A program made the position numbers and the translations under genes. A DNA stretch of 64,000 nt. Source: an uncultured Eubacteriales bacterium. GTDB lineage: Bacteria > Acidobacteriota > Aminicenantia > Aminicenantales > Saccharicenantaceae. The number at the start of each line of letters is the position of its first letter. Within the stretch, counting starts at the first letter, position 1. The notes under the pieces were generated by a model. The model was not told the origin of the DNA. It worked only from the letters and a program-made list of their open reading frames with translations, and searched no databases. The stretch spans positions 27,063 through 91,062 of the forward strand of contig CAZFZU010000001.1 in assembly GCA_964523615.1 (NCBI GenBank), read 5' to 3'. This document shows, in pieces, positions 1-32,974 of the stretch.

Positions 1-1130
1 GCCTGCTCAACAACTCCTACAACATGGGCCTGCGCAAGCTCCGTCCCCACGTCCCCGAGTACCCCGTGGGCACGCCCGACGAGGTGGCCAAGATGATCGG
101 CGAGTTCGTCCCCGTGGCCCGCGTCCTCCTGGGGATGAAGAAGCTCAAGATCTTCTCCTTCGGCCCCCGGCCGCAGGACTTCCTGGCCTGCAACGCGCCC
201 ATCAAGCCCCTCTACGACCTCGGCGTCGAGGTCATGGAGAACAGCGAGCTCGACCTCTACGACATCTTCCGCAAGGCCGAGGGCGACGCCAAGGTCAAGG
301 CCGTGGCCGCCGACATGGCCAAGGAGCTCGGGGCCGGCAACACCTACCCGGACATCCTCAACAAGCTGGCCCAGTTCGAGGTGGCCCTCCTCAAGTTCAT
401 GGAGGCCAACCTCGGGGCCTCGGCGTACGGCGTCTTCGCCGACAAGTGCTGGCCGGCCTTCGAGAGCTACTTCGGCTTCGTCCCCTGCTACGTCAATTCC
501 CGGCTGGCGGCCCGCGGCATCCCCGTCGCCTGCGAGGTCGACATCTACGGCGCCCTGAGCGAGTACATGTGCACCTGCGCCACGGAGCTGCCGGCGACCA
601 TCCTCGACATCAACAACACCGTCCCCTACGACATGATCGCCGGGGCCAAGAAGGCCCTCAAGGGCTACAAGCCGACCGACCTGTTCATGGGCTTCCACTG
701 CGGCAACACGCCGGCGCCCTGCCTGTTCGACCCGGCCATGCGCTACCAGCTCATCATGCACCGGCTCATGGAGCCCGGGAAGGACCCCAACATCACCCGC
801 GGCACGCTCGAGGGCCGGATCCGGACGGGCGGCGTGACCGTCTTCCGGCTCCAGTCGACGGCGGACACGGTCCTGCGGGCCTACGCGGCCGAAGGCGAGG
901 TCCTCGACATCGACCCGAAGTCGTTCGGCGGCATCGGCGTCATCGGCATCAAGGAGATGGGCCGGTTCTACCGCCACGTCCTCATCGAGAAGCGCTTCCC
1001 CCACCACACGGCCGTGGCCTTCGATCACGCCGGAAAGACGATGTGGTCGGTCCTGCGCGTCCTCGGGGTCGAGGACATCGGCTTCAACCGCCCTGCCGGG
1101 ATGCCCTACCCGACCGAGAACCCGTTCTGA
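1..1130 (+). CDS. L-fucose/L-arabinose isomerase family protein, C-terminal ~375 aa (5' end lies outside the window)
   Basis: The frame is open from nt 3 (LLNNSYN precedes the first ATG at 24), so the gene starts upstream. Codon usage is coherent for a high-GC genome. The C-terminal block EKRFPHHTAVAFDHAGK resembles sugar isomerases of the fucose/arabinose isomerase family as I remember them. The stop at 1128-1130 is followed directly by a hairpin. Confidence 0.6.
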   Translation, partial: LLNNSYNMGLRKLRPHVPEYPVGTPDEVAKMIGEFVPVARVLLGMKKLKIFSFGPRPQDFLACNAPIKPLYDLGVEVMENSELDLYDIFRKAEGDAKVKAVAADMAKELGAGNTYPDILNKLAQFEVALLKFMEANLGASAYGVFADKCWPAFESYFGFVPCYVNSRLAARGIPVACEVDIYGALSEYMCTCATELPATILDINNTVPYDMIAGAKKALKGYKPTDLFMGFHCGNTPAPCLFDPAMRYQLIMHRLMEPGKDPNITRGTLEGRIRTGGVTVFRLQSTADTVLRAYAAEGEVLDIDPKSFGGIGVIGIKEMGRFYRHVLIEKRFPHHTAVAFDHAGKTMWSVLRVLGVEDIGFNRPAGMPYPTENPF

Positions 1131-1207
1131 AAATGGGGGACATGATACCTATTTCCTATTTTTCTCATAACTGAAAATAGGGAAACGGGTATCACGTCCC
1201 CCATTTT
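1130..1207. terminator. Long imperfect AT-rich palindrome (~33-bp arms) between convergent genes; probable bidirectional terminator or REP/MITE-like element
   Basis: AAAATGGGGGACATGATACCTATTTCCTATTTT ... AAAATAGGGAAACGGGTATCACGTCCCCCATTTT are near reverse complements. The element starts at the isomerase stop codon. Confidence 0.7.
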
Positions 1208-1274
1208 CTAATTGCCGCGGCGCTGGGGTGCGGGCACATTTGCGTCGAAGAACTTCCGCGGCAGCTTCTCGTCC
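1208..1274 (-). pseudogene. Remnant of the M28 peptidase C-terminus (duplicate of the 3' end of the gene at 4025-5596)
   Basis: The minus-strand translation ends DEKLPRKFFDANVPAPQRRGN*. The intact peptidase ends RDEKLPRKFFDANVPAPARRGN*. Upstream of the 21-aa match the reading frame is nonsense. Confidence 0.8.
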
Positions 1275-1313
1275 AGCCGGCGGGGATCCTCGGGAGGTAA
1301 AAGCAGCCGGCGC

Positions 1314-2759
1314 CTAAGGCATTCCGGAACGGAAAATATTCGCCTCGACCCGGGTACAGGGAAACATCTCTTTGATGAAAAACATCCCGTCCAGGATCCG
1401 GGACCAATCCGTGGTCCTGGGTTTATATTTGAGAAATCGGCAGGACAGCGGCGACCGGAGCCAAGCGCCGTCGGCCGCGGGATTGCGGAAATCCAAAACG
1501 GCATAGTCGAAGCCGGCGGAGGAAAAGAGACCTTCCAAGCTGTTCGGCGCGGCCGGGGCCACTTCGAACGACGTGGGCATTCCGACCTCCGCCCACCGGC
1601 CTTGGAAGGAAGCGAAGCCCAACGAATACACCTCGCCGCCCATCGCCTTGTCCAGCCAGTCGCCCATGGGGACGAAGGGTTCGTCCGGAATCCCGATGAG
1701 ATCGTAGTGCCGGCTGATGTGCGACACCGCAGACCAAACGACGATCTTCCGCTCCGGATAGGCCCGTCGGGCCAGCCAGATGAGGTTGTCCCCCATTTGC
1801 CGGTCCCGTAGATTGAAGGCCCAGTCCATGATGGCTTTATCCCTCGATGCCACATTGATCCGCCAGCTCAACTTCAAGTACGAAGCGATGCTCTTCAAAC
1901 ATTGGATCCAGAAGTCCCGTTCGGCCGTCTCCGGCTCGCGGCCCGGGGGCGACGATGCGAGCGCCAGGCTGAGGTCCCGGACGGCGATCTCGAAGGCGGC
2001 TTGATCTTCGGGCCCGACATTCTTAAAATCGCTGCCGTTCCGGATGAAAGCCGGATCATTCACCACAAGCGCCAGGGTGTCCATCACCCGGGATACGGAG
2101 CTCTTGGCCGAGGGAGACAATCCGGCACCGGCCAAAAAATCGCTCAAATCCTTCTCGAGATGATCCTGGGAGGCGCTTCCCGTGAATTGCATGTCAAACC
2201 CGGCCAATTCCAGCGGAAGATCCGTTTTCGACGACTCCGCCAGGTAGCTCCACAGCGGGTTCGACTGGAGGCTGGCGCTCCAGGTCTCGGGAATGGCCGT
2301 AGATACGGCGGCCTGGGGATCCGCGCCGGCCCGCAGAGCCGACCAAGCCTTGCGGGTGTCGTAGAACCCGCTTTCGAACGCAAGGACGTCGAAGCCCATC
2401 CTTTGATGGAGAAACTTGATCAACCGGACCTTGGCCGCGAAGGTCGCCCCGTCGCCGTGGCTGCTCTCGCCCAGCATGACGATGCGCCGGCCGCCGATCA
2501 TCTGTCGAAGGGGCTCAAGATCGGAAAAATCGGCATCCTCGGACCTGATGGAACGAACCGGAAGAGCATGTTTTTTCAAATAATCGATCCGGGCTTCTCT
2601 CGTCGTCTCCTCCGCCGAAGCCGGCGCCGGCCCGAACCCGGCCCCGTTCATCGGGCCAAAGATCAGCAGCGCCAAGGAAACGGAAACCCCGCTGATTCGG
2701 GCAACGGCGAGCCGGGAATTTCGCTTCAGCTTCCGGCTCGGCGTTCTAACGGCGACCAT
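1314..2759 (-). CDS. Erythromycin esterase family (EreA/ChaN-like) protein, secreted
   Basis: 481-aa ORF with an N-terminal hydrophobic signal. The block RRIVMLGESSHGDGATF...VLAFESGFYD is typical of the erythromycin-esterase-like family. GC is visibly lower than the flanks (about 50% in the 60-nt lines I counted). Confidence 0.7.
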   Translation of the reverse strand: MVAVRTPSRKLKRNSRLAVARISGVSVSLALLIFGPMNGAGFGPAPASAEETTREARIDYLKKHALPVRSIRSEDADFSDLEPLRQMIGGRRIVMLGESSHGDGATFAAKVRLIKFLHQRMGFDVLAFESGFYDTRKAWSALRAGADPQAAVSTAIPETWSASLQSNPLWSYLAESSKTDLPLELAGFDMQFTGSASQDHLEKDLSDFLAGAGLSPSAKSSVSRVMDTLALVVNDPAFIRNGSDFKNVGPEDQAAFEIAVRDLSLALASSPPGREPETAERDFWIQCLKSIASYLKLSWRINVASRDKAIMDWAFNLRDRQMGDNLIWLARRAYPERKIVVWSAVSHISRHYDLIGIPDEPFVPMGDWLDKAMGGEVYSLGFASFQGRWAEVGMPTSFEVAPAAPNSLEGLFSSAGFDYAVLDFRNPAADGAWLRSPLSCRFLKYKPRTTDWSRILDGMFFIKEMFPCTRVEANIFRSGMP

Positions 2760-3786
2760 GAGGGCTCCTTGGTCCGAATGTTCCCTCGTAAACGCTGTTG
2801 TATTCCCGGAAGTCCTGATCGCAGCCGCCGATCACATAGATCCTGTCCCCCAGGACCGCGACTCCCGAGAACTGGATGGGTTTCGGCAGAGGACTGGCCA
2901 TCGCCCAGCGATCCCTGCGGACATCAAAAAAGCACACCTTGTCGCTGGCCATGGAAGATCCGAGCTCTTCCGTGAGCCCGCCGACGACGAAGATGTCCTC
3001 CCCGATGACCGCGATCCCGGGCCCGAGGATGGGAAATGGCAGGTCGGGCAAGGATTCCCAGGCCTTTGCCCCGGGATCATATCTTTGGAACGCCGCGGAG
3101 ATGGACCGGCCCTTATTCGGACCCAGGCCGCCGCCGATCGCGTACAGCTTCCCCCCGACGACGGCCACCTGGACTCCATCGCGGGCTTCCGGCAAGGGAC
3201 GTCCCATGGCCCAGCGATCCGCGGCGAGGTCGTAGATCTCTACGGTCGGGGTGAGGGCCACTCGTTCGGAACCATCCGGCGCGTCAGGGTCTTTACCCAT
3301 CCCCGATACGACGTAGATCTGATTCCCGATGAGACCGCCATCGATATGCTGACGCGGCAGGGACAACGGCGCCAAGCCTGCCCACCTGTCTTCGTCCGGC
3401 AGATAAAGATCGTTGTTGGGCAGGACCGGATCGCCCCCGACGGCGAAGATCTTGCGGTCCAGGGAGACCAGGGCGAAATTCGACCGGCCGACCGGGATCC
3501 TCGCTTTGGCCGTCCAGCTGTCTTTTTCCGGATCGTATTCGTAGTTCGAGGATTCGCACCACTCCTTCGTCGCCGGGCAGTATCCGCCCATGAAATAGAT
3601 CTTTCCGCCTGACGAGACGGCCTTTCCGTTGCGATGGGGCAGGGGCAGATCCGCCTTCGCGGTCCATCGGATGGCGCGGACGCCGCCCCTCTCGGGCTCG
3701 CTTTGGGCGCCCGTCGTGCTGAAAGCGCTCACGAAGATGGACCCGAGAACGAAGGGAAGAACGAATGTCCGGGCCTTAAGCGACAT
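2746..3786 (-). CDS. Kelch-repeat beta-propeller protein, secreted
   Basis: Repeated units GGKIYFMGG, KIFAVGG, NQIYVVSG, GGKLYAIGG, EDIFVVGG and DRIYVIGG each carry W/DxW spacing. The signal peptide is MSLKARTFVLPFVLGSIFVSAFS. I place the start at the second ATG (3786). The gene overlaps the esterase start by 14 nt. Confidence 0.75.
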   Translation of the reverse strand: MSLKARTFVLPFVLGSIFVSAFSTTGAQSEPERGGVRAIRWTAKADLPLPHRNGKAVSSGGKIYFMGGYCPATKEWCESSNYEYDPEKDSWTAKARIPVGRSNFALVSLDRKIFAVGGDPVLPNNDLYLPDEDRWAGLAPLSLPRQHIDGGLIGNQIYVVSGMGKDPDAPDGSERVALTPTVEIYDLAADRWAMGRPLPEARDGVQVAVVGGKLYAIGGGLGPNKGRSISAAFQRYDPGAKAWESLPDLPFPILGPGIAVIGEDIFVVGGLTEELGSSMASDKVCFFDVRRDRWAMASPLPKPIQFSGVAVLGDRIYVIGGCDQDFREYNSVYEGTFGPRSPHGRR

Positions 3787-3910
3787 CCTATCTCCTCGGA
3801 AGCCGGGATCCATATATGATTACGCCCGGATGGCCCCGCACGTTGGGAGTAATTAATAGAATTTCCCTGGCTGGCGGCGGAACGGGGAGGTTCCCCTATA
3901 GGGCGGATCG

Positions 3911-4091
3911 ACCCGACCGAGAACCCGTTCTAGAAATGGGGGACATGATACCTATTTCCTATTTTTCCCATAACAGAAAATAGGGAAACGGGTATCACGT
4001 CCCCCATTTTCCGTCCCCCTTTTTCTAGTTGCCGCGGCGCGCGGGCGCCGGCACATTCGCGTCGAAGAACTTCCGCGGCAGCTTCTCGTCC
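3911..4091. repeat. Direct repeat copy B (~181 bp): remnant of the isomerase 3' end (PTENPF*), palindrome, and the genuine M28 peptidase 3' end
   Basis: See copy A. This copy includes cgaccgagaacccgttctag, a copy of the last codons of the isomerase gene 2.8 kb away. Confidence 0.9.
3933..4010. terminator. Second copy of the AT-rich palindrome
   Basis: GAAATGGGGGACATGATACCTATTTCCTATTTTTCCCATAACAGAAAATAGGGAAACGGGTATCACGTCCCCCATTTT is nearly identical to 1130-1207. Confidence 0.7.
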
Positions 4092-5596
4092 CGCATCGCG
4101 GCGTTGTAGACGAACCAGGCCATGACCGTCGCCGACTGGATGAGGTCCGGCCTCGAGACGTGGTCGAGGACGTCCATGTTCGAGTGGTGCGTCAGCGTGT
4201 CGTACTCGAGGTCGTCCTGGATGAACTGGAAGCCGGGCAGGCCGACCGCGTCGAACGGCAGGTGGTCGGTCCCGCCGGTGTTGCGGAGCGTCACCGTGGC
4301 CGCCCCCAGATCGCGGATGGGCTCGAGCCAGGCCTGGAAAATGGGCACGACGGCGCTGTTGTTCTGGGCGTAGATGCCTCGGATCTTGCCGCTGCCGTTG
4401 TCGAAATTGAAATAGGCCGAGAGCTTGTCGTACTCGGGCTTCTTCTCCTTCTTGGTCCGGTCGAAGAAGTGGTTGGCGACGTAGCCGCGCGAGCCGACGA
4501 AGCCCTGCTCCTCGGCGTCCCAGAGGGCCATGCGGATGGTCCGGCGGGGCTTGACGCCGAGGGCCTTCAGGATGCGCATGGCCTCGAAGGCGACCGCGCT
4601 GCCGGCCCCGTCGTCCGTGGCCCCGGTGCCCGAATGCCAGGTGTCGAAGTGGCCACCGAGCATGACCAGCTCGGACTTGAGCTTGGGATCGGTGCCCGGG
4701 ATCTCGGCGACGACGTTGGTGCCCGGCAGGTCGTCGGCCGTAAAGCGGGCCTGGACCTCGATCTCGAGGGTCACCGGGATGTCCTTCTGCAGGATGCGGA
4801 CGATGCGGTTGTAGTGCTCGTTGGCGACGGCGATCGAAGGCAGGGGCGTCTCGGCCCCCTTGACCCTCGACCCGCCGCTCGAGACGAAGACCGTGCCGAA
4901 CTTGCCGCGGCCCGGATCGACGAGGCAGCCGACGCCCTCGGCCTTGAGGAACTTGCCGACGGCCATCTGGAGCTGCTGGCGGGCGGCCGCGTCCTGCATC
5001 TGGGGGTTCTGCGGCCGGCGGGCGCCCGGCTCGGGCGCGAGCACGAGCTTCGCCAGGTCGGTCTCGAGCAGGCGCGAGGCCATCGGGTCGAAGGAGATCG
5101 TCATATCCTGCTCGCCCTGGGTCAGGACGATGGCGTCCTTGAGCTTGCCCTTGTACTTGTCGAGGTCGGCCACCGTCTTGGGCTGGAGGAGGACGGCCTG
5201 GCCCTTGAGGACCCCGTTCGTCCCGGGCGTCCAGGCCTTGGGATAGCCGATGAGCGGCATGTATTGCGGCGCGGTCATGGCAGCGTAGTACTTCTGGAGC
5301 TCCCAGCTGCGGCCGAACGTGCCGTAGGCCTCCAGGGCCGCGTTGGCCAGGCCGAGCTCCTTGGCCTTGCCGACGACCCACTCGCCGGCCTGGACGTACT
5401 GCGGCGAGGCCGGCAGCCGCGGCGCATAGACGTCGCAGAGGTAGATGAGGAAGTCGACGATCTTCGAGTTCTGCAAGCCCTCGGCCCGGATGCGGTCGAG
5501 CATCTGCAGGTCGAGCTTCTCCTGGGCGCTCCCCTCGAGCGCGGCGAAGACGAGAAGCAGGGCCAGGACGAGCGTGCGAACGAGCGGTCTTTTCAT
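4025..5596 (-). CDS. M28 family metallo-aminopeptidase (with PA-like insert), secreted
   Basis: 523 aa with signal MKRPLVRTLVLALLLVFAALEGSAQ. Zinc-site blocks are GGHFDTWHSGTGATDDGAGSA and ALWDAEEQGFVGSRGY. Confidence 0.85.
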   Translation of the reverse strand: MKRPLVRTLVLALLLVFAALEGSAQEKLDLQMLDRIRAEGLQNSKIVDFLIYLCDVYAPRLPASPQYVQAGEWVVGKAKELGLANAALEAYGTFGRSWELQKYYAAMTAPQYMPLIGYPKAWTPGTNGVLKGQAVLLQPKTVADLDKYKGKLKDAIVLTQGEQDMTISFDPMASRLLETDLAKLVLAPEPGARRPQNPQMQDAAARQQLQMAVGKFLKAEGVGCLVDPGRGKFGTVFVSSGGSRVKGAETPLPSIAVANEHYNRIVRILQKDIPVTLEIEVQARFTADDLPGTNVVAEIPGTDPKLKSELVMLGGHFDTWHSGTGATDDGAGSAVAFEAMRILKALGVKPRRTIRMALWDAEEQGFVGSRGYVANHFFDRTKKEKKPEYDKLSAYFNFDNGSGKIRGIYAQNNSAVVPIFQAWLEPIRDLGAATVTLRNTGGTDHLPFDAVGLPGFQFIQDDLEYDTLTHHSNMDVLDHVSRPDLIQSATVMAWFVYNAAMRDEKLPRKFFDANVPAPARRGN

Positions 5597-5723
5597 GATC
5601 TCTTCCTCCGGGACGACGTCTCCCGGGGACTATACGCCTCGGGCGGGAACGATGTCAAAGCGCCCGGCGGCCGCGGCGGCGGGGCTTCCCGAATCGGCCG
5701 GCCTGCCTTATAATACAGGGGCC

Positions 5724-6758
5724 GTGAAAGCCGCATTCCTGACCGGAGTCCGGGCCATCGAGATCCGGGAGGCCCCCGCGCCGCGCCTCGTCCGCGACGA
5801 CGACGTCATCGTCAAGAGCCAAGCCGTCGGCGTCTGCGGCAGCGACCTCCATTACTACCTGTCCGACAGCGTCGGCAGCGACAAGGTCAAGTACCCCTTC
5901 ATCCCCGGGCACGAGTGCGCCGGCGTCGTGGCCGAGACGGGCCGGGCCGTCAAGAAGGTCAAAGCGGGCGACCTGGTCGTGGTCGAGCCGGCCGTCTCCT
6001 GCGGCGTCTGCGACCAGTGCCGCGCCGGCCGGCCCCACACCTGCCGCTGGCTCCTGTTCCTCGGGCACGCCGGCGAGCTGACCGGGGGCATGGCCGAGTT
6101 CGTCATGGCCCCCGAGCGCAACTGCGTCCCCCTGCCGGGCCGGATGACGGCTGTCCAGGGCGCCCTGGCCGAGCCGCTGTCCATCGGCCTTTACGCCGCC
6201 GGGCAGGCCGGTTCGGTCCGGGGCAAGGCCGTCGCCGTCCTGGGGACCGGGCCCATCGGCCTGTGCGTCCTGATGGCCCTGCGGACGGAAGGCGCGGCGG
6301 CCATCTACGCCACCGAGAAGGTCGAGGCCCGGGAGCGGGCGGCCATGCCGGCCGGGGCCCAGTGGACGGGCAACCCCGACCGCGAGGACGTCGTCGGCTC
6401 CATCCTGGCCCACGAGTCGCAGGGCCTCGACGCCGTTTTCGAGTGCTGCGGCGAGCAGTCCGCGCTCGACCAGGCCGTGGCCCTGCTCAAGCCGGGAGGG
6501 ACCCTGGTCGTCGTCGGCATCCCCCTCGCGGCCCGCGTCTCCTTCGACAGCTCCAAGGTCCGCCGCAAGGAGATCCGGGTCCAGAACGTCCGGCGCCAGA
6601 ACCGCTGCCTGGAGAAGGCCGTGGCCCTGATCCACTCGGGCAAGGTCAAGGTCGATTACCTGGCCACGCACTTCTTCGGCCTGGAGCTGGCCCGGGAGGC
6701 CTACGAGACCGCCGCGGCCCGGAAGAACGGCGTCATCAAGGCCGTCGTCACGCCCTGA
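5724..6758 (+). CDS. Zinc-dependent alcohol/polyol dehydrogenase (MDR family, sorbitol/threonine dehydrogenase-like)
   Basis: GVCGSDLHYY, PFIPGHECAGVV, the CGVCDQCRAGRPHTC structural-zinc motif and the GTGPIGL Rossmann motif are present. The start is taken as GTG 5724 (VKAAFL...). An in-frame ATG at 5652 is an alternative. Confidence 0.85.
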   Translation: MKAAFLTGVRAIEIREAPAPRLVRDDDVIVKSQAVGVCGSDLHYYLSDSVGSDKVKYPFIPGHECAGVVAETGRAVKKVKAGDLVVVEPAVSCGVCDQCRAGRPHTCRWLLFLGHAGELTGGMAEFVMAPERNCVPLPGRMTAVQGALAEPLSIGLYAAGQAGSVRGKAVAVLGTGPIGLCVLMALRTEGAAAIYATEKVEARERAAMPAGAQWTGNPDREDVVGSILAHESQGLDAVFECCGEQSALDQAVALLKPGGTLVVVGIPLAARVSFDSSKVRRKEIRVQNVRRQNRCLEKAVALIHSGKVKVDYLATHFFGLELAREAYETAAARKNGVIKAVVTP

Positions 6759-6763
6759 CCGGC

Positions 6764-6798
6764 GGGGACATGTACCGAAGGTACGTGCCCCCTCTTTT
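6764..6798 (+). terminator. Rho-independent terminator downstream of the dehydrogenase
   Basis: GGGGACATGTACC-gaa-GGTACGTGCCCC is followed by CTCTTTTCC. It shares the GGGGACATG core with the larger palindromes. Confidence 0.6.
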
Positions 6799-6819
6799 CC
6801 AGACGCGAAGGAGGCCCAT

Positions 6820-7776
6820 ATGAATACGCGCCAGGAAGACGATTTCGGCACCCCCTTCGAGCGCGTCTTCGTCGGCGCTACCGCCGTCGCGACCGCGCTC
6901 GTCCTGGGCTACCTCGCCGTCCAAGGCCCGCTCGCCCGCGGCGTCATCGCCTACAAGACCGCGCCGGGCATCGTCGGCCAGCTCATGGGCCAGGACGCGG
7001 TCAACCTGGTCCTGATGGCGCCCCTGTTGCTCGCCGGAGGCGTTCTCCTCTTGCTCCGCCGGCCCCTCGCGAAGTTTCTGCTCATCGCTACGCCGCTTTT
7101 CCTCATCTACTACGCCCTGAGCTACACCATCGGCTGGGAGTGGAGCTCGCCGGCCTACGCGGGCAACAGCGAGCGCTGGTTCTTCCTCTACCTCTTCGTC
7201 CTCGTCGCGGCCCTCGTCATCCTGCTCTACGCCCTGGCGGTCTTCCCCAAGGACGTCGAGAGCCGGTTCCGTAAGAGCGGGCTGGCGGCCTATTCCGCCG
7301 TGTTCGTCCTGTTCCTGCTCGTCTTCGCGGCCATGTGGGCCAAGGAGGTCTTCGAGGTCGTCCGGACCGGCACCAGCCGCGGTTACGACATCGCCCCGGC
7401 CGCCTTCTGGCTGGTCCGGGTCTTCGACCTCGGCTTCTCGATCCCCCTGGGCCTCATCAGCGTCTACCTCCTGTGGGCCCGGCCGAAGCAGGCCTACGCC
7501 GTCGTCTGCCTGTTCTACGGCTTCTTCTTCACCCAGATCGTGGCCGTCAACGCCATGGGCTGGACCATGCTCGTCAAGAAAGACCCGACCTTCCTCTGGC
7601 GCGACCTCGTCGTCTTCCATGTCCTGGCCGCGGTCATCGCCTTCGGCTTCTTCTACGTTCGGAGGAATTACCGCCAACCGGTCCTGACGCCCGAGGAGGA
7701 AGCAAACCCCGCCAAGATCCTCGCCGAGGACGAGTTCGTTGCCCTGGAGCAGGCGAAAAAGTCGCTCGATCGCTAA
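6820..7776 (+). CDS. Integral membrane protein of unknown function (~8 predicted TM segments)
   Basis: 318 aa with an AGGAGG RBS 6-11 nt upstream of the ATG. It has repeated long hydrophobic stretches. I recognise no family. Confidence 0.7.
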   Translation: MNTRQEDDFGTPFERVFVGATAVATALVLGYLAVQGPLARGVIAYKTAPGIVGQLMGQDAVNLVLMAPLLLAGGVLLLLRRPLAKFLLIATPLFLIYYALSYTIGWEWSSPAYAGNSERWFFLYLFVLVAALVILLYALAVFPKDVESRFRKSGLAAYSAVFVLFLLVFAAMWAKEVFEVVRTGTSRGYDIAPAAFWLVRVFDLGFSIPLGLISVYLLWARPKQAYAVVCLFYGFFFTQIVAVNAMGWTMLVKKDPTFLWRDLVVFHVLAAVIAFGFFYVRRNYRQPVLTPEEEANPAKILAEDEFVALEQAKKSLDR

Positions 7777-7794: not shown

Positions 7795-9768
7795 TCAGAT
7801 GATTTTGAAGCCGATGTCCTTCAGGTAATCGAACGTCGGGTCATAGAACGAGGGCAAGCGCGTCGGGTCCTCCTTGTCCCCCGGCGGCACGACGATGACC
7901 ATTCCCTGGCGGGCCCGGGTCAACAGGACCCGGTAAGCGTTCTTCTGGTATTTCTGTCGTTCCGGGTCCTTGATGTTCGTCCACTTATCGCCAAGGAAAG
8001 ATTTGTGCGCCCATCCGGAATGGGAATAACGGAAATCGGCGTCCCAAGTGATACAAGTCCAATCTAGCTCCAGTCCCTGGACGTCGAATTCCGTCGCCAC
8101 ATCTTCAAGATAGTAGGATGAGCGGACATCGTTCTTTCCATCCAGGAACCAATGGACAGGATCCGTGGGGGATTTGACAAAAATGGCATGGGGCTTGAGT
8201 CGTTCGGCCTGAGACGAAACGACGATTCCATATCGTTCTGTTCCTCTAGCCTGCCGCCGTAGCCACGTCTTAGCCTTGTCGATTTCCCGAGTGATCACTA
8301 TGGGGTATTTCCCCGTCAATTGTCCATGGGTCCAGCGCGCCGCCTCGGTTTCGCGATCGAGCAACTGCTTAACTAAGAGGGAGACGTTCTCGGCGCGGAA
8401 CGAGCGCATAGACACGGAGAGGTGAAGCGACTTCTCTTCGTTCACATGTCCCAACGGTTTCAGGCGCTCCAAGGCTCTTCCGGCATCATACTCGTTGTCC
8501 ATCAATTGCGGCGAGATGTAAACGCGCCAATCCCTGAAACGTCGTAACAGCGAATCGATCCATTCCGAGATCCCGGCCTCCCCCGTATTGATCTCCTGGC
8601 CTCCCCCTACAAGACAGATGACGACGGCCCAATCGGGGTGACGGTCGAGACATGAAATGAGGAATTCCGGTTCTGAAAACGTGAACCCAGGCGTCTTTTT
8701 CTTCCGTTTCATGAAGTCCGCGGTCTTTTGGGGAGTCCATGCGCGCTGCGCCTCATCGAAGAGGGCCACGTGATCGATCGGCGGTTTCGCGTCGATCAGG
8801 CAATCGTCCCGGAAGTGATGGACGTTCTGGATGAATGCCTTGACGCGGCTTTTCGCGTCATGTTTCTTGATCTTCTTGCCCCGGGCCTTTTCTCTCGCGA
8901 CCATATCCCTGGCCAGGGCTTCTTGCAGGATCTTCACGAGCGGGCCGTTTCCGGAAAGAAAGACGCTATGATGAGCATCGGCCGTATCGATATATTTCGT
9001 GGCGATGTTGAGTCCGACGAGGGTTTTGCCGGCCCCCGGGACGCCGGTCACGAAGCAGATCGATTTATGCCCCTGGGATTTCGACCGCTGGATGATGTCC
9101 GAGACCGCGTCAGACGTCTCCCGTAAGTTGATCGCGCCCGCGTCGCTACGGGAGATCTCAGCTACGGAATGACTTCGATAGAGCGCTAGAGCGGCTTCCA
9201 TTATAGTCGGTGTCGGGCTGTATCGTCCGGTCCTCCATATCTGCCAATCGATAGGTTCCCCTTCCGCGAAATGCAAGACATCCACGAGGGTTTGCCCGAA
9301 CAGCTCCGCGTTAGTTCTAATGGGATACAGCAGCTTGTCGTTCTGAGGCGTCATGGAGATAACGGGCATGACGGTTTTGGCGCCGGTCGCGATCAGAATG
9401 GGCGCGATGACCCGGTCATGGCTCGTTTCGTGGAAGTTCTTGAGGTCCAAGGCATAATCGGTCACTTGGTCGACGGCATATGCGGAAAAATCCTGGGAAC
9501 CCGTCTTGAATTCGAGGACGAAGATGACCGGTCCAATGATGAGGAGGACATCAATCCTCTCTCCCATGCGGGGGATCGCATATTCGAAATAGATGGCCCC
9601 TGAATAAGGGCCCAGCACCGAACGGAGGATCTGGATCTCCTCGACCCAGGCCGCACGTTGCTCGGAGGTGTCCGGGAAGTCGCTGCCGAGCGCTAGCTTT
9701 CCGACGATCTCTTCCGTTGACGTTCGGAGGAATCCGGAGATCGTGTCAGAATAATATTCGCGGTTCAC
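7795..9768 (-). CDS. DUF2075-type (Schlafen-like) SF1 helicase/ATPase with an N-terminal PD-(D/E)xK-like nuclease region
   Basis: 657 aa with Walker [11 protein letters not shown]. The C-terminal [19 protein letters not shown] block is typical of DUF2075 and UvrD-C-like proteins. The N-terminal ...[18 protein letters not shown]... looks like a D...ExK nuclease core. GC was about 53-58% in sampled lines, against ~68% in the flanks. The GTG start overlaps the upstream stop (GTGA). Confidence 0.75.
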
Positions 9769-10355
9769 TTCATCCGGTCCCGCATCTTGGCCTCGTTCTC
9801 GGAGGGCCAGTAGCCGCAGTCGAGCTCCAGGAAGACGGAGGTGTAAGGCACGGCCAGGGTCGTCTTGACCATGACGATCTTGAAGGCCTTTCCGGCTTGA
9901 TCGAGCCGGGCGATGAGCTCTTCATGGAGGACGGGCGCGGCGCCCCGGCCCTTGAGCGCCTCGTCGAGCCGCCGCTTGGCCTCGTCCGCTCCCGGCGCCA
10001 GGTCCTCGGTCACGTATCCCAGCTCCTTGTCGAGCCAGATCTTGGGCCGGATGTGCTTGGCGCCGTCGACGGCCTCGAGCACCTTCTCCAGGACGGCGAA
10101 ATGGTCCTCGCCCGTGACGATGGTCTCGATGCCGGGCGAGATCTGGAGGGGGAAGGCCGAGTCGGCTACCACGATCCAGTTGCGGTGGCCTAGGGCCGGC
10201 AGATAGGCGGCGAGCTTGTCCATCCAGGCCGGGGACGCGACGGCTTGAGCGTTGGTCATGGCGTGTTCCTCCCCTTTCGCTTCGTCCTCCTGATCACAGG
10301 CGACGAACGCCGCGAGCAGGACGGCCAATCCGACGCTCAGGAGCTTAACGCGCAC
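9765..10355 (-). CDS. RbsD/FucU (sugar mutarotase/pyranase) family protein with an N-terminal signal or lipoprotein-like peptide
   Basis: [16 protein letters not shown] and [21 protein letters not shown] resemble the LGHxDxxvvxDAxxP and C-terminal blocks of RbsD/FucU. The N-terminus is [20 protein letters not shown]. Confidence 0.55.
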
Positions 10356-10376
10356 GATATCCTCCTCCGCGGTCCG

Positions 10377-10808
10377 TCATTCGCCCGGCAGGAGCCGGTA
10401 GGTCGCCGCGATGGGCGCCGCCATCTTGAGCATGGCCCAGACCGGGCAATAGCGCTCCTCGGACAGGGCCAGGGCCTTCTCGACCTGGGCCGGATCGAGC
10501 TTGCCGCCCCTGAACTCGAACTCGAGCACGATCGAGGTGAAGACGGCCGGGTGGATCTCCTTCTTCTCGCCGCGGGCGTGGACGGTCAGGTCCTCGACCT
10601 CCTGGCCCATGCGCTTGAGAAGGCCGACCGCGACCTGGCCGCTGCAACCGGCCAGGCTGGCCAGGACGAGCTCCATGGGTGTGTGCCCGCCGATCGGTCC
10701 CCCTTCCGCCGCGAAATCGATGGCCACGGTCGTCCCGGCCCGCTCGGACCGGCCCTCGAACTTCATGCCGCCCTTGAAGACGATGTCCGCGCGAGACTCC
10801 TTGGCCAT
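10377..10808 (-). CDS. OsmC/Ohr family peroxiredoxin-like protein
   Basis: 143 aa with GGHTPMELVLASLAGCSG and SEERYCPVWAML, the two conserved Cys blocks of the OsmC family. Confidence 0.85.
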   Translation of the reverse strand: MAKESRADIVFKGGMKFEGRSERAGTTVAIDFAAEGGPIGGHTPMELVLASLAGCSGQVAVGLLKRMGQEVEDLTVHARGEKKEIHPAVFTSIVLEFEFRGGKLDPAQVEKALALSEERYCPVWAMLKMAAPIAATYRLLPGE

Positions 10809-10877
10809 GGGCAGGCTCCTTTCGCCGGGATGCGGGCGGACGCCCGCCGCTAGTATCCAACGGGGCGCCGGCCGGCG

Positions 10878-11936
10878 TCAATAAGGCAGGGCGACGAAGA
10901 ACTCGACCCACTTCCCGGGCTCGCCCTCGACCCAGATGCGGCCCTTGTGCTTGTCGACGACGGTCTTCGAGATGTAGAGCCCCAGGCCCGAGCCCTTGAC
11001 GCCCTCGGTGCCCTTTTGTTTGAGCCGCTCGAAGCGCTTGAAGAGCCGGGGCATGTCTTCCTTGGGGATGCCGACGCCCTCGTTGCGGACCGCCAGCACG
11101 AGCTCGCCGTCCCGCGCCGCCAGCCGTATCCGGACCGGCGTGCCCTCGGCGCCGTACTTGACGGCGTTGTTGACGAGGTTCGCGACCAGGATCTTGAGCA
11201 GGTTGGGATCGCCCTCGATGACGGGGTCGCCGTCGAGCTCGGTCACGATGGCCATCCGGCGGACGTTGTCGCAGACGCCGGGCATGTCCAGGACCGGCCC
11301 GACGACGGCCGAGGCGAAGGGGACCTTCTCCTTGAACAGGGCCAGCCCATCGAGCTCCATCTTGGACAGGTCGATGTAGCTGCGGATGATGTCCTCGAGA
11401 TAGGAGCAGTTGCGGATGATGGTCTCGACGATCCTCTGCTGCTCGGGCTCGAGCTTGCCGAAATAGCCCCGCTGCAGGGTCGTCGCCGTCGTCTGGACGG
11501 CGGCCAGGGGGCTCTTGAGCTCGTGGGAGACGATGGCCATGAGATCGAGCATCTTGGCCCCGGCGGCGTCCTTGCGGGCCTCGATGGCGTTGGCGATGAC
11601 GCTCCGCAGCTCGTCCGGGGTGAAGGGCTTGGGGACGTAGTCGAAGGCCCCGTTCTTGAGGGCTTCGCGGGCCGTGTCGACGCTCGAGAATCCGGTGAAG
11701 ATGATGACGGTCGTCTTGGGCCGGTCCCGGCGCAGGGCCTTGAGGACCTCCATGCCGCCGAGGCCGGGCATCTTGAGGTCGGTGACGACGATGTCGTAGT
11801 CCTTGGCCATGGCCATGGCCAGACCCTCGTCGCCGGAGGGGGCCGTGTCGATCTCGTGGTCGGAGCCGGCGAAGATGCGCTTCGAGCTCTTGAGGACGAT
11901 GTCCTCGTCGTCGATGAACAGCAGCTTGACGCCCAT
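10878..11936 (-). CDS. Hybrid response-regulator receiver / histidine kinase (REC-HisKA-HATPase)
   Basis: REC motifs DDED...DLKMPG...KPF are present, with H-box VSHELKSPL, N-box LVNNAVKY and G-box GSGLGLYIS. Confidence 0.9.
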   Translation of the reverse strand: MGVKLLFIDDEDIVLKSSKRIFAGSDHEIDTAPSGDEGLAMAMAKDYDIVVTDLKMPGLGGMEVLKALRRDRPKTTVIIFTGFSSVDTAREALKNGAFDYVPKPFTPDELRSVIANAIEARKDAAGAKMLDLMAIVSHELKSPLAAVQTTATTLQRGYFGKLEPEQQRIVETIIRNCSYLEDIIRSYIDLSKMELDGLALFKEKVPFASAVVGPVLDMPGVCDNVRRMAIVTELDGDPVIEGDPNLLKILVANLVNNAVKYGAEGTPVRIRLAARDGELVLAVRNEGVGIPKEDMPRLFKRFERLKQKGTEGVKGSGLGLYISKTVVDKHKGRIWVEGEPGKWVEFFVALPY

Positions 11937-31028: not shown

Positions 31029-31397
31029 ATGAAATTCACCTTCGCCCACAACAACATCAATGTCTTCCACCTCCAGAAGAGCCTGATCTTCTACAAGTCC
31101 GCCCTCGGGCTCGAGGAGGTCCGCCGGCACGAGGCCGCGGACGGCAGTTTCGTCCTGGTCTACCTCGGCGACGGCAAGACCCCTCACCGGCTCGAGCTGA
31201 CCTGTCTCCACGACCGCAAGGAGCCCTACGACCTGGGCGACAACGAGAGCCACCTGGCCTTCACGGTCGACGACTATCGGGCCGCCCACGCCCTCCACGA
31301 GGAGATGGGGGTCATCTGCTACGAGAACCCGGGGATGGGTATCTATTTCATCGAGGACCCGGACGGGTACTGGCTGGAGATCGTGCCCGCTAAATAA
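31029..31397 (+). CDS. VOC family protein / lactoylglutathione lyase-like (glyoxalase I)
   Basis: 122 aa. The protein begins FAHNNINV, with ...HRLELT...ESHLAF... and ends ...FIEDPDGYWLEIV. Confidence 0.8.
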   Translation: MKFTFAHNNINVFHLQKSLIFYKSALGLEEVRRHEAADGSFVLVYLGDGKTPHRLELTCLHDRKEPYDLGDNESHLAFTVDDYRAAHALHEEMGVICYENPGMGIYFIEDPDGYWLEIVPAK

Positions 31398-31398
31398 T

Positions 31399-31466
31399 GG
31401 GGCCGTTTCTATTTATTTTATTCATCCAATTTTCATCAAATGAATAAAACAAATAGAAACGGCCCC
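31399..31466. terminator. Bidirectional terminator: 27-bp AT-rich stem between convergent genes
   Basis: GGGGCCGTTTCTATTTATTTTATTCAT ... ATGAATAAAACAAATAGAAACGGCCCC has one mismatch. It is flanked by T-runs on both strands and fills the gap between the stops at 31397 and 31472. Confidence 0.75.
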
Positions 31467-31471
31467 GTTTT

Positions 31472-32635
31472 CTATTTGAACCTGTAGAGCGAGATCGAGC
31501 GGAAGGTCTCGCCGGGCCGCAACACCGTCGAGGGGAAGTTCGGGTGGTTCGGCGAATCCGGGAAGTGCTGGGTCTCGAGGCAGAAGGCGTAGTGTTTCTG
31601 ATAGGCTTTGCCGCCCTTGCCGACGACCGAGCCGTCGAGGAAGTTGCCCGTGTAGAGCTGGATGGCCGGCTGGTCCGTCCAAACTTCCATGACGCGGCCG
31701 CTCACCGGCTCCTCGACGCGCGCCGCCAGGGCCAGCGTGCCGCCGCCGCTCCTGAGGACAAAATTGTGGTCGTAGCCGCCCTCGACCAGGGCGATCCTCT
31801 CGCCGATCGCGTGGGGGGCGGTGAAATCGAACGGCGTCCCGGCCACGGGCGCGATCTCGCCGGTCGGGATGAGGTTGACCGGAGAATCGACGGCGGTGAT
31901 CCTGTCGGCCTCGATCCGGAGGACGTGCCCCAGGATATCGCCGCGGCCCTCGCCCTTGAGGTTCCAGTAGGCGTGGTTGGTCAGGTTGAGGACGGTGGGC
32001 TTGTCCGTCGTCGCCTCGTAGCGGATCTCGAGCTCGTCGGCCTCCATCAGGGTGTAGACGACCGTGACCGCCAGGTTCCCCGGATAGCCCTCCTCGCCGT
32101 CTTTGCTGAGGTAGGTCAGCTTGAGGCCGGCGCCCTTCTCGCCGCGGACGGGTTCGGCCGTCCAGACGACCTTGTCGAAGCCCTTGAGCCCGCCGTGGAG
32201 CGTGTTCTCGTTGTTGTTGACGGCCAGGCGGTATTCGGCGCCGTCCAAGGTGAACCGGGCCTTGGCGATGCGGTTGCCGTAGCGGCCGATGATGGCCCCG
32301 AAATAGGGATGGGTGCCTAAATACCCCTCGAGCGAATCGAAGCCGAGGTTGACGTCGGCCAGGGCGCCGGCGCGGTCCGGGGTCTTGAGCGAGACCAGGA
32401 TGGCCCCGTAGGTCATGATACGGGCCTCCAGGCCGGCCTTGTTGGTCAGGGTGTAGATATCGACGGCCGTGCCGTCGGGCAGCCGGCCGAAGAGCTCTTT
32501 GCGGACGTCCATCGTCGGGCCTCCTTCGCCGGCGGCCGCCGCCCGGGGCGTCTCGGTCCCGTTCTTGCAGCCCGGGATGAGACAAGCCAGGGCCAGGAGG
32601 GCCGCCAGGATCGTTCTTTTCGCGCGCTCGGTCAT
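31472..32635 (-). CDS. galM: Aldose 1-epimerase (galactose mutarotase), lipoprotein-type signal
   Basis: 387 aa with GRYGNRIA, NENTLHGG, TNHAYWNL and the CLETQHFPDSPN block. The N-terminus contains LALACLIPGC. Confidence 0.9.
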   Translation of the reverse strand: MTERAKRTILAALLALACLIPGCKNGTETPRAAAAGEGGPTMDVRKELFGRLPDGTAVDIYTLTNKAGLEARIMTYGAILVSLKTPDRAGALADVNLGFDSLEGYLGTHPYFGAIIGRYGNRIAKARFTLDGAEYRLAVNNNENTLHGGLKGFDKVVWTAEPVRGEKGAGLKLTYLSKDGEEGYPGNLAVTVVYTLMEADELEIRYEATTDKPTVLNLTNHAYWNLKGEGRGDILGHVLRIEADRITAVDSPVNLIPTGEIAPVAGTPFDFTAPHAIGERIALVEGGYDHNFVLRSGGGTLALAARVEEPVSGRVMEVWTDQPAIQLYTGNFLDGSVVGKGGKAYQKHYAFCLETQHFPDSPNHPNFPSTVLRPGETFRSISLYRFK

Positions 32636-32730
32636 GATCGCCTCCGCGGGTCAGGGGAGCTGAATCCTTTATTTATATTAAAGACAGGGCCATTTCAACT
32701 CTCTCTCCACTCCCGGCAGGCGGATTGGCT

Positions 32731-32855
32731 GGGACACGATGCGGGAAGATCGGGGACACGTTGCGGGAAAATGGGGACACGATCCCTTTTCAGGAGAAAA
32801 GGGTCATGTCCCTATTTTCCCTCTGTCCCCATTTTCCCTCTGTCCCCGATTTCGC
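32731..32855. repeat. Composite palindrome built from three direct repeats per arm (GGGACACGnTGCGGGAAnAT / inverted ATTTTCCCTCTGTCCCC)
   Basis: Left-arm repeats lie at 32731-52, 32753-73 and 32774-90. The centre is caggag. Inverted repeats lie at 32797-812, 32813-30 and 32831-47. It shares the AAAATGGGGACA(C/T)GAT core with the palindromes at 1130 and 3933. Confidence 0.8.
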
Positions 32856-32974
32856 ACCCCCGCCCGCCCTGAAGCGGGCCGGCTTCGCTAGCCCGCTTCC
32901 CTCCGCCGGGCTATGCCCGGCGGCGGAACGATTGACCCCCGCTTCTACGTATGGTAATCCTAAGGCGTATTACT

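Follow-up and report, generated by a model that had tools for sequence, protein, structure and literature searches.

The stretch analyzed here, 64,000 nucleotides (nt) of contig CAZFZU010000001.1 (assembly GCA_964523615.1, positions 27,063 to 91,062; hereafter the window) from an uncultured bacterium of the class Aminicenantia (Acidobacteriota), carries close to its left end a cassette of two genes, one of the erythromycin-esterase family and one encoding a Kelch-repeat protein. The cassette lies between a resident isomerase gene and a resident M28 peptidase gene and is bracketed by two long direct repeats (copies A and B), each of which comprises the complete convergent junction of these resident genes, i.e. 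both gene ends and the hairpin that separates them. The features of the locus are listed below in the coordinates of the window (bp, base pairs; aa, amino acids; L096 is the locus that holds the nearest diverged esterase).

24 to 1130, plus strand: L-fucose-isomerase-like gene, its 3' 368 codons (the left end of the window cuts the gene); PF02952 Fucose_iso_C, E = 4e-20; ends PTENPF-TGA in copy A.
1108 to 1277, no strand: copy A, made up of the functional isomerase tail at 1108-1130, the hairpin at 1129-1208 and, on the minus strand at 1208-1274, the orphan peptidase tail.
1129 to 1208, no strand: hairpin A, an imperfect 36-bp stem closed by an 8-nt loop, with an A-tract at one flank and a T-tract at the opposite flank.
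1278 to 1313, minus strand: left joint and 3' untranslated region of the esterase gene; homology to L096 starts at 1282, which leaves 4-5 nt to where the orphan peptidase tail ends.
1314 to 2759, minus strand: cargo gene 1, erythromycin-esterase-family protein, 481 aa, predicted secreted; PF05139, E = 2e-28; signal-like N-terminus and a GExxHG motif.
2746 to 3786, minus strand: cargo gene 2, Kelch-repeat beta-propeller protein, 346 aa, predicted secreted; Kelch_1, Kelch_6 and related Pfam families, with matches to Kelch propellers in the PDB.
3787 to 3910, minus strand: upstream region of the cassette, an AT-rich, promoter-like stretch (...gttgggagtaattaatagaat...), the promoter being predicted from sequence; 100% identical in the contig L101 and in Logan contigs.
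3911 to 4094, no strand: copy B, with the orphan isomerase tail (3911-3933, TAG stop), hairpin B (3932-4011), a 14-nt duplication (~3998-4025) and the functional peptidase tail (4025-4094).
4025 to 5596, minus strand: resident gene for an M28 family peptidase of 523 aa that carries a signal peptide; PF04389, E = 5e-32.

Aligned over 170 positions, copy A (170 nt) and copy B (184 nt) show 11 substitutions (93.5% identity, 6.5% divergence); a 14-nt indel also separates them, the extra nucleotides of copy B being a tandem copy of CGTCCCCCATTTTC, a T-tract module. The exact blocks common to both copies are 21, 34, 36 and 33 nt long and no 41-mer is shared between them. The two copies bracket 2,633 bp of DNA and are the sole long direct repeats in the window. 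Each of them consists of the last seven isomerase codons (the PTENPF end) with a stop codon, TGA in A and TAG in B; a hairpin of 78-80 nt with a 36-bp stem; and, on the minus strand, the last 21 peptidase codons with their stop, DEKLPRKFFDANVPAP[Q/A]RRGN-stop. Intact genes are reached from the outer repeat halves only, as the open reading frames (ORFs) of Fucose_iso_C (24-1130, plus) and Peptidase_M28 (4025-5596, minus) both extend outward, and the inner halves are orphan pieces, a peptidase tail and an isomerase tail. The preliminary description of this DNA, made from its letters alone, had called the flanking repeats near-identical, proposed computing their exact identity and assigned only the outer halves to intact genes; the figures given here bear out this description.

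Five codons distinguish the two peptidase tails: four of the changes are synonymous, and at the fifth the orphan has Gln and the gene Ala; this Gln is a natural variant that is also present in several relatives. The G+C content (GC) at third codon positions (GC3) of the orphan peptidase tail is 0.81 vs 0.95-0.96 in the host gene, a difference that amounts to only three codons. Comparison was made with 80 orthologous peptidase loci (64-94% protein identity) recovered from metagenomes, and with about 100 related loci (104) in all. Both orphan tails are about equally far (86-88%) from all sampled relatives. The isomerase has full-length orthologues of 492 aa at 95-100% identity, and in relatives the aldolase-isomerase neighbourhood is syntenic. 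Going by the names under which homologues are recorded, the DNA belongs to an Aminicenantes-like member of the Acidobacteriota. An exact look-up of the window peptidase protein returned no match, likely because short-read assemblies cut the peptidase gene inside the repeat.

The esterase-family and Kelch ORFs are the only real ORFs between the repeats, in agreement with the two-gene cargo proposed earlier. The distant relatives of the esterase in the PDB are Bcr135/136 (2qgm, 2rad/3b55) and EreC (6xcq), and from this family membership it may be hypothesized that the cassette enzyme hydrolyzes macrolides. The Kelch product has a signal peptide and the form of a six-blade propeller. Translation from an upstream ATG at 3813 would extend it to 355 aa, a form for which an exact look-up gave no match, likely because other assemblies call the gene from the downstream ATG; the resulting 346-aa product is on record in seven contigs. 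The Kelch and esterase genes overlap by 14 nt and hence make up a single operon.

The composition of the cassette marks it, by sequence criteria, as foreign: GC3 is 0.77 in both of its genes vs 0.98 in the isomerase and 0.96 in the peptidase gene. Its overall GC (0.617; 0.58-0.67 in 300-nt windows) is lower than that of the whole window (0.679), so that the lower GC given in the preliminary description stands as a tendency, the figure of 50-58% being too low. The same account had described a newly arrived segment bracketed by a duplication of the whole convergent junction and free of recognizable mobility functions, a picture with which the GC3 contrast, the identical structure of L101 (see below) and our ORF and domain searches agree. 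No integrase, transposase or recombinase was found in or adjoining the cassette among the listed ORFs and their Pfam domains, and there are no terminal inverted repeats at 1278 and 3910.

Three established classes of mobile DNA were considered for this segment and rejected. An insertion sequence or composite transposon is at odds with the lack of a transposase domain and of terminal inverted repeats, and with a duplication of 170 nt rather than 2-15 bp. An integron cassette does not fit, since the ends of the hairpin (GTTCTGA and GTTCTAG) have a C where the RYYYAAC/GTTRRRY core needs an R, no integrase is encoded nearby, the segment holds two genes with an upstream region of their own, and the hairpin is ancestral to the empty site. 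As for a tRNA-targeted island, the 64-kb window contains neither a tRNA nor a transfer-messenger RNA gene; targeting of this kind is a feature only of the esterase islet at L096.

The arrangement could in principle have been produced by the assembler, if a separate circular or multi-copy element carrying the junction sequence had been threaded into the chromosome, and the preliminary description had itself named such an artefact as grounds for withdrawal. Short-read assemblies built at k=31 do break at the repeats or cycle through them, and the contigs recovered include none from the same species in which the site is unambiguously empty. Among the Logan contigs, L002-L004 have identical 30-nt ends, in L003 and L004 a left repeat half of B type runs into a right half of A type, and L005 has a B-type tail joined to the cassette. 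We do not take L002-L005 as evidence for circles or recombinants. The identity blocks of 33-36 nt exceed k-1 = 30, so that a k=31 graph cannot phase the variants across them and bubble popping or tip clipping can generate precisely such circular or hybrid paths; these contigs are therefore uninformative. The 11 differences and the 14-nt indel leave no common 41-mer, and hence assemblers working at larger k phase the two copies uniquely. Most directly, an independent SPAdes contig, L101 (ENA ERZ781235, NODE_978, 8,171 nt), is collinear with positions 1-7137 of the window (order aldolase-isomerase-esterase-Kelch-peptidase-ADH) and has both repeats with the same copy-specific variants (copy A 100% identical, copy B with three mismatches), even though its flanks have diverged by 3.4%. 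In addition, the Logan contig L001 leads out of the cassette, across copy B and on into the body of the peptidase gene. Overall, with the window and L101 as independent assemblies that both phase it, the structure is confirmed as real, and an artefact appears very improbable.

The comparison with L101 also revealed how the block spreads. Mismatches between the two sequences amount to 38/1107 nt in the isomerase body, 50/1502 nt in the peptidase body and 39/1033 nt in the ADH gene (~3.4% divergence). In the tract 957-4267 there are only 11 mismatches in 3311 nt (0.3%) vs 88/2285 in the flanks (Fisher p = 1e-23). This tract includes the last 150 nt of the isomerase gene ahead of the repeat, copy A, the cassette, copy B, and 170 nt of the peptidase gene beyond the repeat. 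Its low divergence relative to the flanks indicates that the block moved recently between backgrounds, with crossovers in the flanking core genes, and the likeness of the repeats in the window and L101 indicates that the two copies were already diverged from each other when it moved. In L001 the same inner boundary (…ggcggatcga/cccgaccgag…, the slash marking the joint) stands beside a third allele of the hairpin and peptidase, which points to a crossover inside copy B in that lineage. These data show that the repeat-cassette-repeat block is passively mobile between strains by ordinary homologous recombination, an exchange that needs no element-encoded function.

The hairpin at the centre of each repeat folds at -48.1 kcal/mol on one strand and -49.2 kcal/mol on the other (z ~ -9.4), and the orthologous hairpin of relatives has 29 predicted pairs, seven of which show compensatory double changes. 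Within the window its arm occurs only in copies A and B (0 occurrences expected by chance). In the 104 related loci (~0.9 Mb) the core motif is confined to the orthologous junction, one more related site being present in the window at 32773. The symmetry of an A-tract, a G-rich stem and a T-tract leads us to infer an ancestral bidirectional terminator, which in copy A would serve the isomerase gene and the Kelch-esterase operon; a simple terminator scan flags sub-hairpins only. The TA...TA flanks of the hairpin are simply the two stop codons.

Other assignments of the hairpin were considered and dismissed. It reaches the gathering score of no Rfam family, and a known RNA family was rejected because the sub-threshold matches to microRNA precursors are those expected of any long hairpin. 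A dispersed miniature inverted-repeat transposable element (MITE) or repetitive extragenic palindrome was rejected as well, since the hairpin is not multi-copy and its arm is found only in the two repeat copies of the window; the many dispersed copies by which a MITE is recognized are present neither in the window nor in the 104 loci. As a separate observation, the setting of the copy B hairpin (3926-4031, ttcTA[GAAATGGGGG...CCCCCTTTTTC]TAgtt) is formally that of a palindromic element at a TA within CTAG, and here too the low copy number speaks against a MITE inserted at TA.

Two further sites of the window resemble the junction hairpin. At 31391-31474 an AT-rich hairpin with 35-bp arms exactly spans the stop codons of the convergent ORFs 31029-31397 (plus) and 31472-32635 (minus). 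Being built like the junction hairpin, it suggests a genome-wide style of long bidirectional terminator, and hairpins of this kind between other convergent stops would fit generic bidirectional terminators. Between divergent ORFs at 32700-32880 there are three direct copies of a GGGGACACG(A/T)T motif, followed by a hairpin with 25-bp arms (GAAAATGGGGACACGATCCC...) related to the junction hairpin and then by tandem 'ccctctgtccccattttc' modules, which look like the 14-nt tandem duplication of copy B.

The junction without the cassette is preserved in relatives. At peptidase identities of ~76% or more the peptidase and isomerase genes are usually convergent, and the spacer between them consists of overlapping stop codons (ccgttCTAGtt) in eight loci, of 10-46 nt in about ten, and of a hairpin of 83-98 nt in about a dozen. 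A separate inspection of the hairpin-less relatives L017, L020, L026, L027, L030, L031, L035 and L054 showed stop codons that overlap in CTAG or CTAA. Empty sites with a single hairpin junction were found in L016 (a 2.27-Mb contig, with the peptidase 93% and the isomerase 95% identical to those of the window), L010/L018, L011-L014, L019, L029 and L033. The preliminary description had postulated just this ancestral order, isomerase and peptidase converging on one palindrome, and had proposed looking for it in related genomes; the relatives do show the convergent arrangement, with either an orthologous, covarying hairpin or overlapping stops.

In six other lineages the same junction holds unrelated cargo:

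L015 (peptidase 94% identical), junction insert: YkuD transpeptidase gene.
L009 (peptidase 91% identical), junction insert: an HTH gene and an unknown gene, starting in the right arm of the hairpin.
L022, junction insert: Gp49/HI1420 toxin-antitoxin pair.
L040, junction insert: FG-GAP protein.
L048/49, junction insert: beta-lactamase-fold hydrolase.
L062, junction insert: Ser/Thr kinase and an FG-GAP gene as in L040.

By comparison of these sequences the junction qualifies as a hot spot, a general landing site for small accessory inserts. None of the inserts of the other lineages includes an integrase or transposase, none is flanked by a duplicated junction, and their insertion points relative to the hairpin vary. 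For example, the 1.4-kb insert of L009 (JGI Ga0192394_134734, 9570-11080) begins in the right arm of the hairpin (…gggaacgggtatcatgtcc/agctcatgtcc…) and, in contrast to the insert in the window, abuts the isomerase stop codon with no duplication. The junction insert of L062 (JGI Ga0299915_10008992, 1370-6760) is 5.4 kb long with a GC of 0.47. A 31-nt exact direct repeat (1382-1412 and 4774-4804) brackets its gene for a 994-aa Ser/Thr-kinase-TPR protein and resembles a tRNA fragment from the anticodon arm to the T-arm, ARAGORN calling no tRNA there. The adjacent 605-aa FG-GAP gene shares the first 60 residues with the lone FG-GAP gene inserted in L040. A self-comparison of the ~100 related loci disclosed no other duplication of the junction type; the other repeats that it returned were only tRNA-half repeats (L096) and intergenic hairpin repeats (L056, L097/98). 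That the duplication is unique to the window cassette speaks against a mechanism that is dedicated to such events and recurs.

An identical esterase protein is encoded in ~25 Logan short-read assemblies, always on cassette-sized contigs. Among the sequencing runs with the islet are SRR22184545, SRR29761470, SRR22184542 and SRR12489245, along with those underlying ERZ781235. The nearest diverged esterase, that of L096 (92% identical as protein and 94.7% as DNA; blastn, L096 3487-4864 vs window 2659-1282), is not accompanied by a Kelch gene and belongs to a 2.2-kb islet located after tRNA-Pro and tRNA-Arg(TCT). In L096 (JGI Ga0105107_10009982, 2900-6536) the tRNA-Arg(TCT) gene (3197-3271) is followed by direct copies of its 3' half at 5403-5479 and 6405-6481, which bound the esterase islet and a second islet of 1.0 kb, with no integrase in view; this layout is one of tandem accretion at an attachment (att) site. 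The homology with L096 comes to within 4-5 nt of the orphan peptidase tail, so that on its left the cassette is bounded by a sharp illegitimate joint just where the esterase gene ends; the right illegitimate joint, with the orphan isomerase tail, is at 3910/3911. More distant esterase homologues (66%) adjoin an integrase and an rve transposase gene. Taken together, these contexts point to a cargo that is a mosaic of Aminicenantes/Acidobacteriota accessory DNA. The esterase and the hairpin had no match among IMG/VR viral contigs, nor had the cassette any among PLSDB plasmids. In the GTDB species representatives the Kelch gene has no close relative, the matches being actinobacterial proteins of 25-32% identity only.

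Two details of L096 may be added. The window has TAG where L096 has CCG, which makes the L096 esterase ORF about a dozen codons longer (window 1282-1316 vs L096 4830-4868), and the cassette boundary is ~3-4 nt before the stop of this longer, L096-type ORF; the shortened end and the position of the boundary suggest that the C-terminus was reshaped at or after insertion. Farther upstream, after mutL, L096 has a hairpin with 36-nt arms (97% complementary) preceded by three direct AAGAAGGGGTCAAACC units.

We favor the interpretation, to which we assign a probability of about 0.55, that the locus is a strain-variable islet devoid of its own mobility genes, situated at a permissive convergent-terminator hot spot, and that it arose by a one-step insertion with a long target duplication. 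The foreign DNA would be the Kelch gene together with an esterase gene derived from an Aminicenantes tRNA-Arg islet. It would have entered through two illegitimate joints, one seven codons inside the isomerase 3' end, where the Kelch upstream region became attached to isomerase codon -7, and the other 21 codons inside the peptidase 3' end, where peptidase codon -21 became attached to the esterase 3' end. The 170 nt that separate these joints, centred on the terminator hairpin, would then be left on both sides of the insert as the long target duplication. We infer this origin step from the present arrangement and regard, with moderate confidence, a single event at the hairpin as the most economical route. 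Either a break at the hairpin with long staggered ends could have been filled in around captured DNA, or a polymerase stalled at the hairpin could have taken foreign DNA as its template and then returned to a position upstream of the one it had left. The duplication itself would make the insertion tolerable, leaving both resident genes complete and each of the three transcription units with a terminator. Insertions into both genes would be tolerated only if the duplication restores them, which may be why this form survives. At a later stage recombination would have joined inner (orphan) and outer (functional) halves from different lineages: because the copies differ mainly at synonymous sites, both tails probably evolved in working genes of different lineages rather than decaying in place. 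The exchange in question may have been of the Campbell type, a circle bearing the junction entering by one crossover, or it may have taken two crossovers to bring a linear repeat-cassette-repeat segment into an empty site.

Several points weigh against a one-step insertion. No intermediate of the origin step was found; among the loci recovered there was no same-species empty site (97% identity or more), and no donor lineage of the orphan tails was identified among the sampled relatives. A target duplication of 170 nt is far longer than any produced by a transposase, and the break and template-switch routes have no direct support at this locus. The analogues with similar repeats, MccH47 and wzy (see below), excise RecA-independently or site-specifically (PMC3191183, PMC12074656). 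The 6.5% divergence of the copies implies that they were not made recently in this genome, and the present pair is fitted equally well by a Campbell-type import of a junction-bearing circle.

In such an import a circle from another lineage, carrying the cassette and one copy of the junction, would integrate by a single crossover through the ~170 nt of homology, leaving an attL of host-left and donor-right halves and an attR of donor-left and host-right halves. The circle could have popped out of an earlier repeat-cassette-repeat arrangement or picked up the junction by aberrant excision. The topology of the locus is exactly that of a single crossover, inner and outer halves differ mostly at synonymous sites, and homologous recombination is demonstrably active here. 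However, a double crossover of a linear repeat-cassette-repeat segment into an empty site yields the same mosaic. The GC3 of the orphan peptidase tail is nearer to that of the cassette than to that of the host gene, but three codons make up the whole difference, and AT-biased decay would fit it too. The Logan contigs are compatible with a cycle of 2.80-2.82 kb, but they carry no weight given the phasing limit at k=31 described above. This scheme presupposes a junction-bearing circle and thus cannot be the first origin of the duplication; as an account of the locus we consider it possible rather than likely.

Among known systems the locus is an unusual example of the integrase-less, repeat-flanked kind of genomic islet, not a new mobile element: it has long direct repeats, no internal recombinase, and an empty site in relatives. 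The L096 tRNA islet shares with it the same esterase (95% at the DNA level), small size, the lack of an integrase, and direct repeats by which the target gene regains its 3' end. The difference is in the target, which in L096 is the 3' half of tRNA-Arg(TCT), with repeats of ~50-60 nt in three tandem copies, and in the window a junction of protein genes. The prophage element e14 and phage 21 integrate in the 3' end of E. coli icd and carry a replacement 3' end, so that the target gene stays intact, the orphan 3' end is displaced, and the copies differ mainly synonymously. Elements of this type have their own integrase beside the att site and duplicate one gene end, whereas in the window two convergent gene ends and a terminator are duplicated and there is no integrase.

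Two systems that lack a recombinase of their own come closer. The MccH47 island of E. coli (13 kb) is flanked by extensive imperfect direct repeats with four blocks of identity, and its excision and integration were shown experimentally to be RecA-independent and to proceed without a recombinase of its own (Azpiroz et al. 2011, PMC3191183). Like the window cassette, it is small, has no integrase of its own, is bounded by imperfect direct repeats of several identity blocks, and is missing from empty sites in relatives; the empty site of related E. coli strains keeps a single hybrid repeat, and mobility depends on host-supplied functions. Its repeats are not described as gene ends, whereas the window repeat is a complete convergent junction with its terminator, and excision and integration were shown there, whereas at the window locus homologous block exchange is the only movement seen. 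In Salmonella Typhimurium the wzy (rfc) gene lies on 2,558 bp between 113-bp perfect direct repeats and undergoes reversible excision, the circle having been detected by polymerase chain reaction (Charity et al. 2025, PMC12074656). The likeness is one of size (2,558 vs 2,633 bp), of cargo without a recombinase, and of repeats of ~100-180 bp, and the deletion form of wzy keeps one repeat copy; the wzy repeats are perfect and intergenic, whereas those of the window are 6.5% diverged and include coding 3' ends. What sets the window locus apart is a repeat that spans an entire convergent junction, from one gene end across the common terminator to the other gene end, together with a movement shown as passive homologous exchange.

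These precedents raise the question whether the repeats of the window might be attachment sites of a site-specific recombinase encoded elsewhere, with crossover in the hairpin or its identity blocks, which would make the cassette a cis-mobilizable element without an integrase. Excision and reintegration are on record for small islands that have no integrase and are flanked by long direct repeats, in part imperfect (PMC3191183, PMC12074656), the closest relative of the esterase lies in tandem integrase-less islets bounded by tRNA-Arg 3'-half repeats, and the junction is reused across lineages, in L062 with tRNA-like direct repeats. On the other hand, the cargo of the other lineages came without a duplicated junction and at points that vary relative to the hairpin, and neither the window nor the ~100 loci contain a second cassette with a duplicated hairpin junction. 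The ~0.9 Mb of related loci contain the core motif of the hairpin at no other place and the window has one further occurrence of it, no recombinase is encoded nearby, and the demonstrated transfer had its crossovers outside the repeats. On this balance we hold a recombinase acting in trans to be unlikely. A more specific version, in which Aminicenantes would encode a recombinase that recognizes long terminator hairpins between convergent genes and inserts or excises integrase-less cassettes while regenerating the gene ends, seems to us quite improbable. If true, it would explain the different cargo of each lineage at the junction and would follow a logic like that of integron attC sites or Xer/dif hitch-hikers, but at ordinary terminators. 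The interest of the locus would be much higher if its repeats were indeed substrates of such a hairpin-recognizing recombinase, an idea with little support at present.

On the favored interpretation, that of an islet without mobility genes inserted in one step at a terminator hot spot, the locus illustrates how accessory genes can be added without dedicated mobility machinery in an uncultured phylum. The terminator of convergent genes would act as a reusable landing pad, the long duplication sparing both neighbours as well as the terminator. Homologous recombination spreads the block from strain to strain at about ten times the rate at which its flanks diverge. The locus also documents a route for erythromycin-esterase-family genes among environmental Acidobacteriota, with no implication of resistance. 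For metagenomics it calls for caution, as repeats of 170-184 nt fragment k=31 assemblies, and the resulting contigs, of cassette size and seemingly circular or hybrid, may be mistaken for plasmids or excised elements.

Outside this locus, the window contains at 7795-9768 (minus strand) a gene whose 657-aa product has a DNA/RNA helicase domain of Schlafen group 3 (PF09848, E = 4e-81). The surrounding ~7800-9800 has a GC of 0.51-0.59 between regions of 0.65-0.70 and looks like a second, separate foreign insert, possibly with a role in defence.

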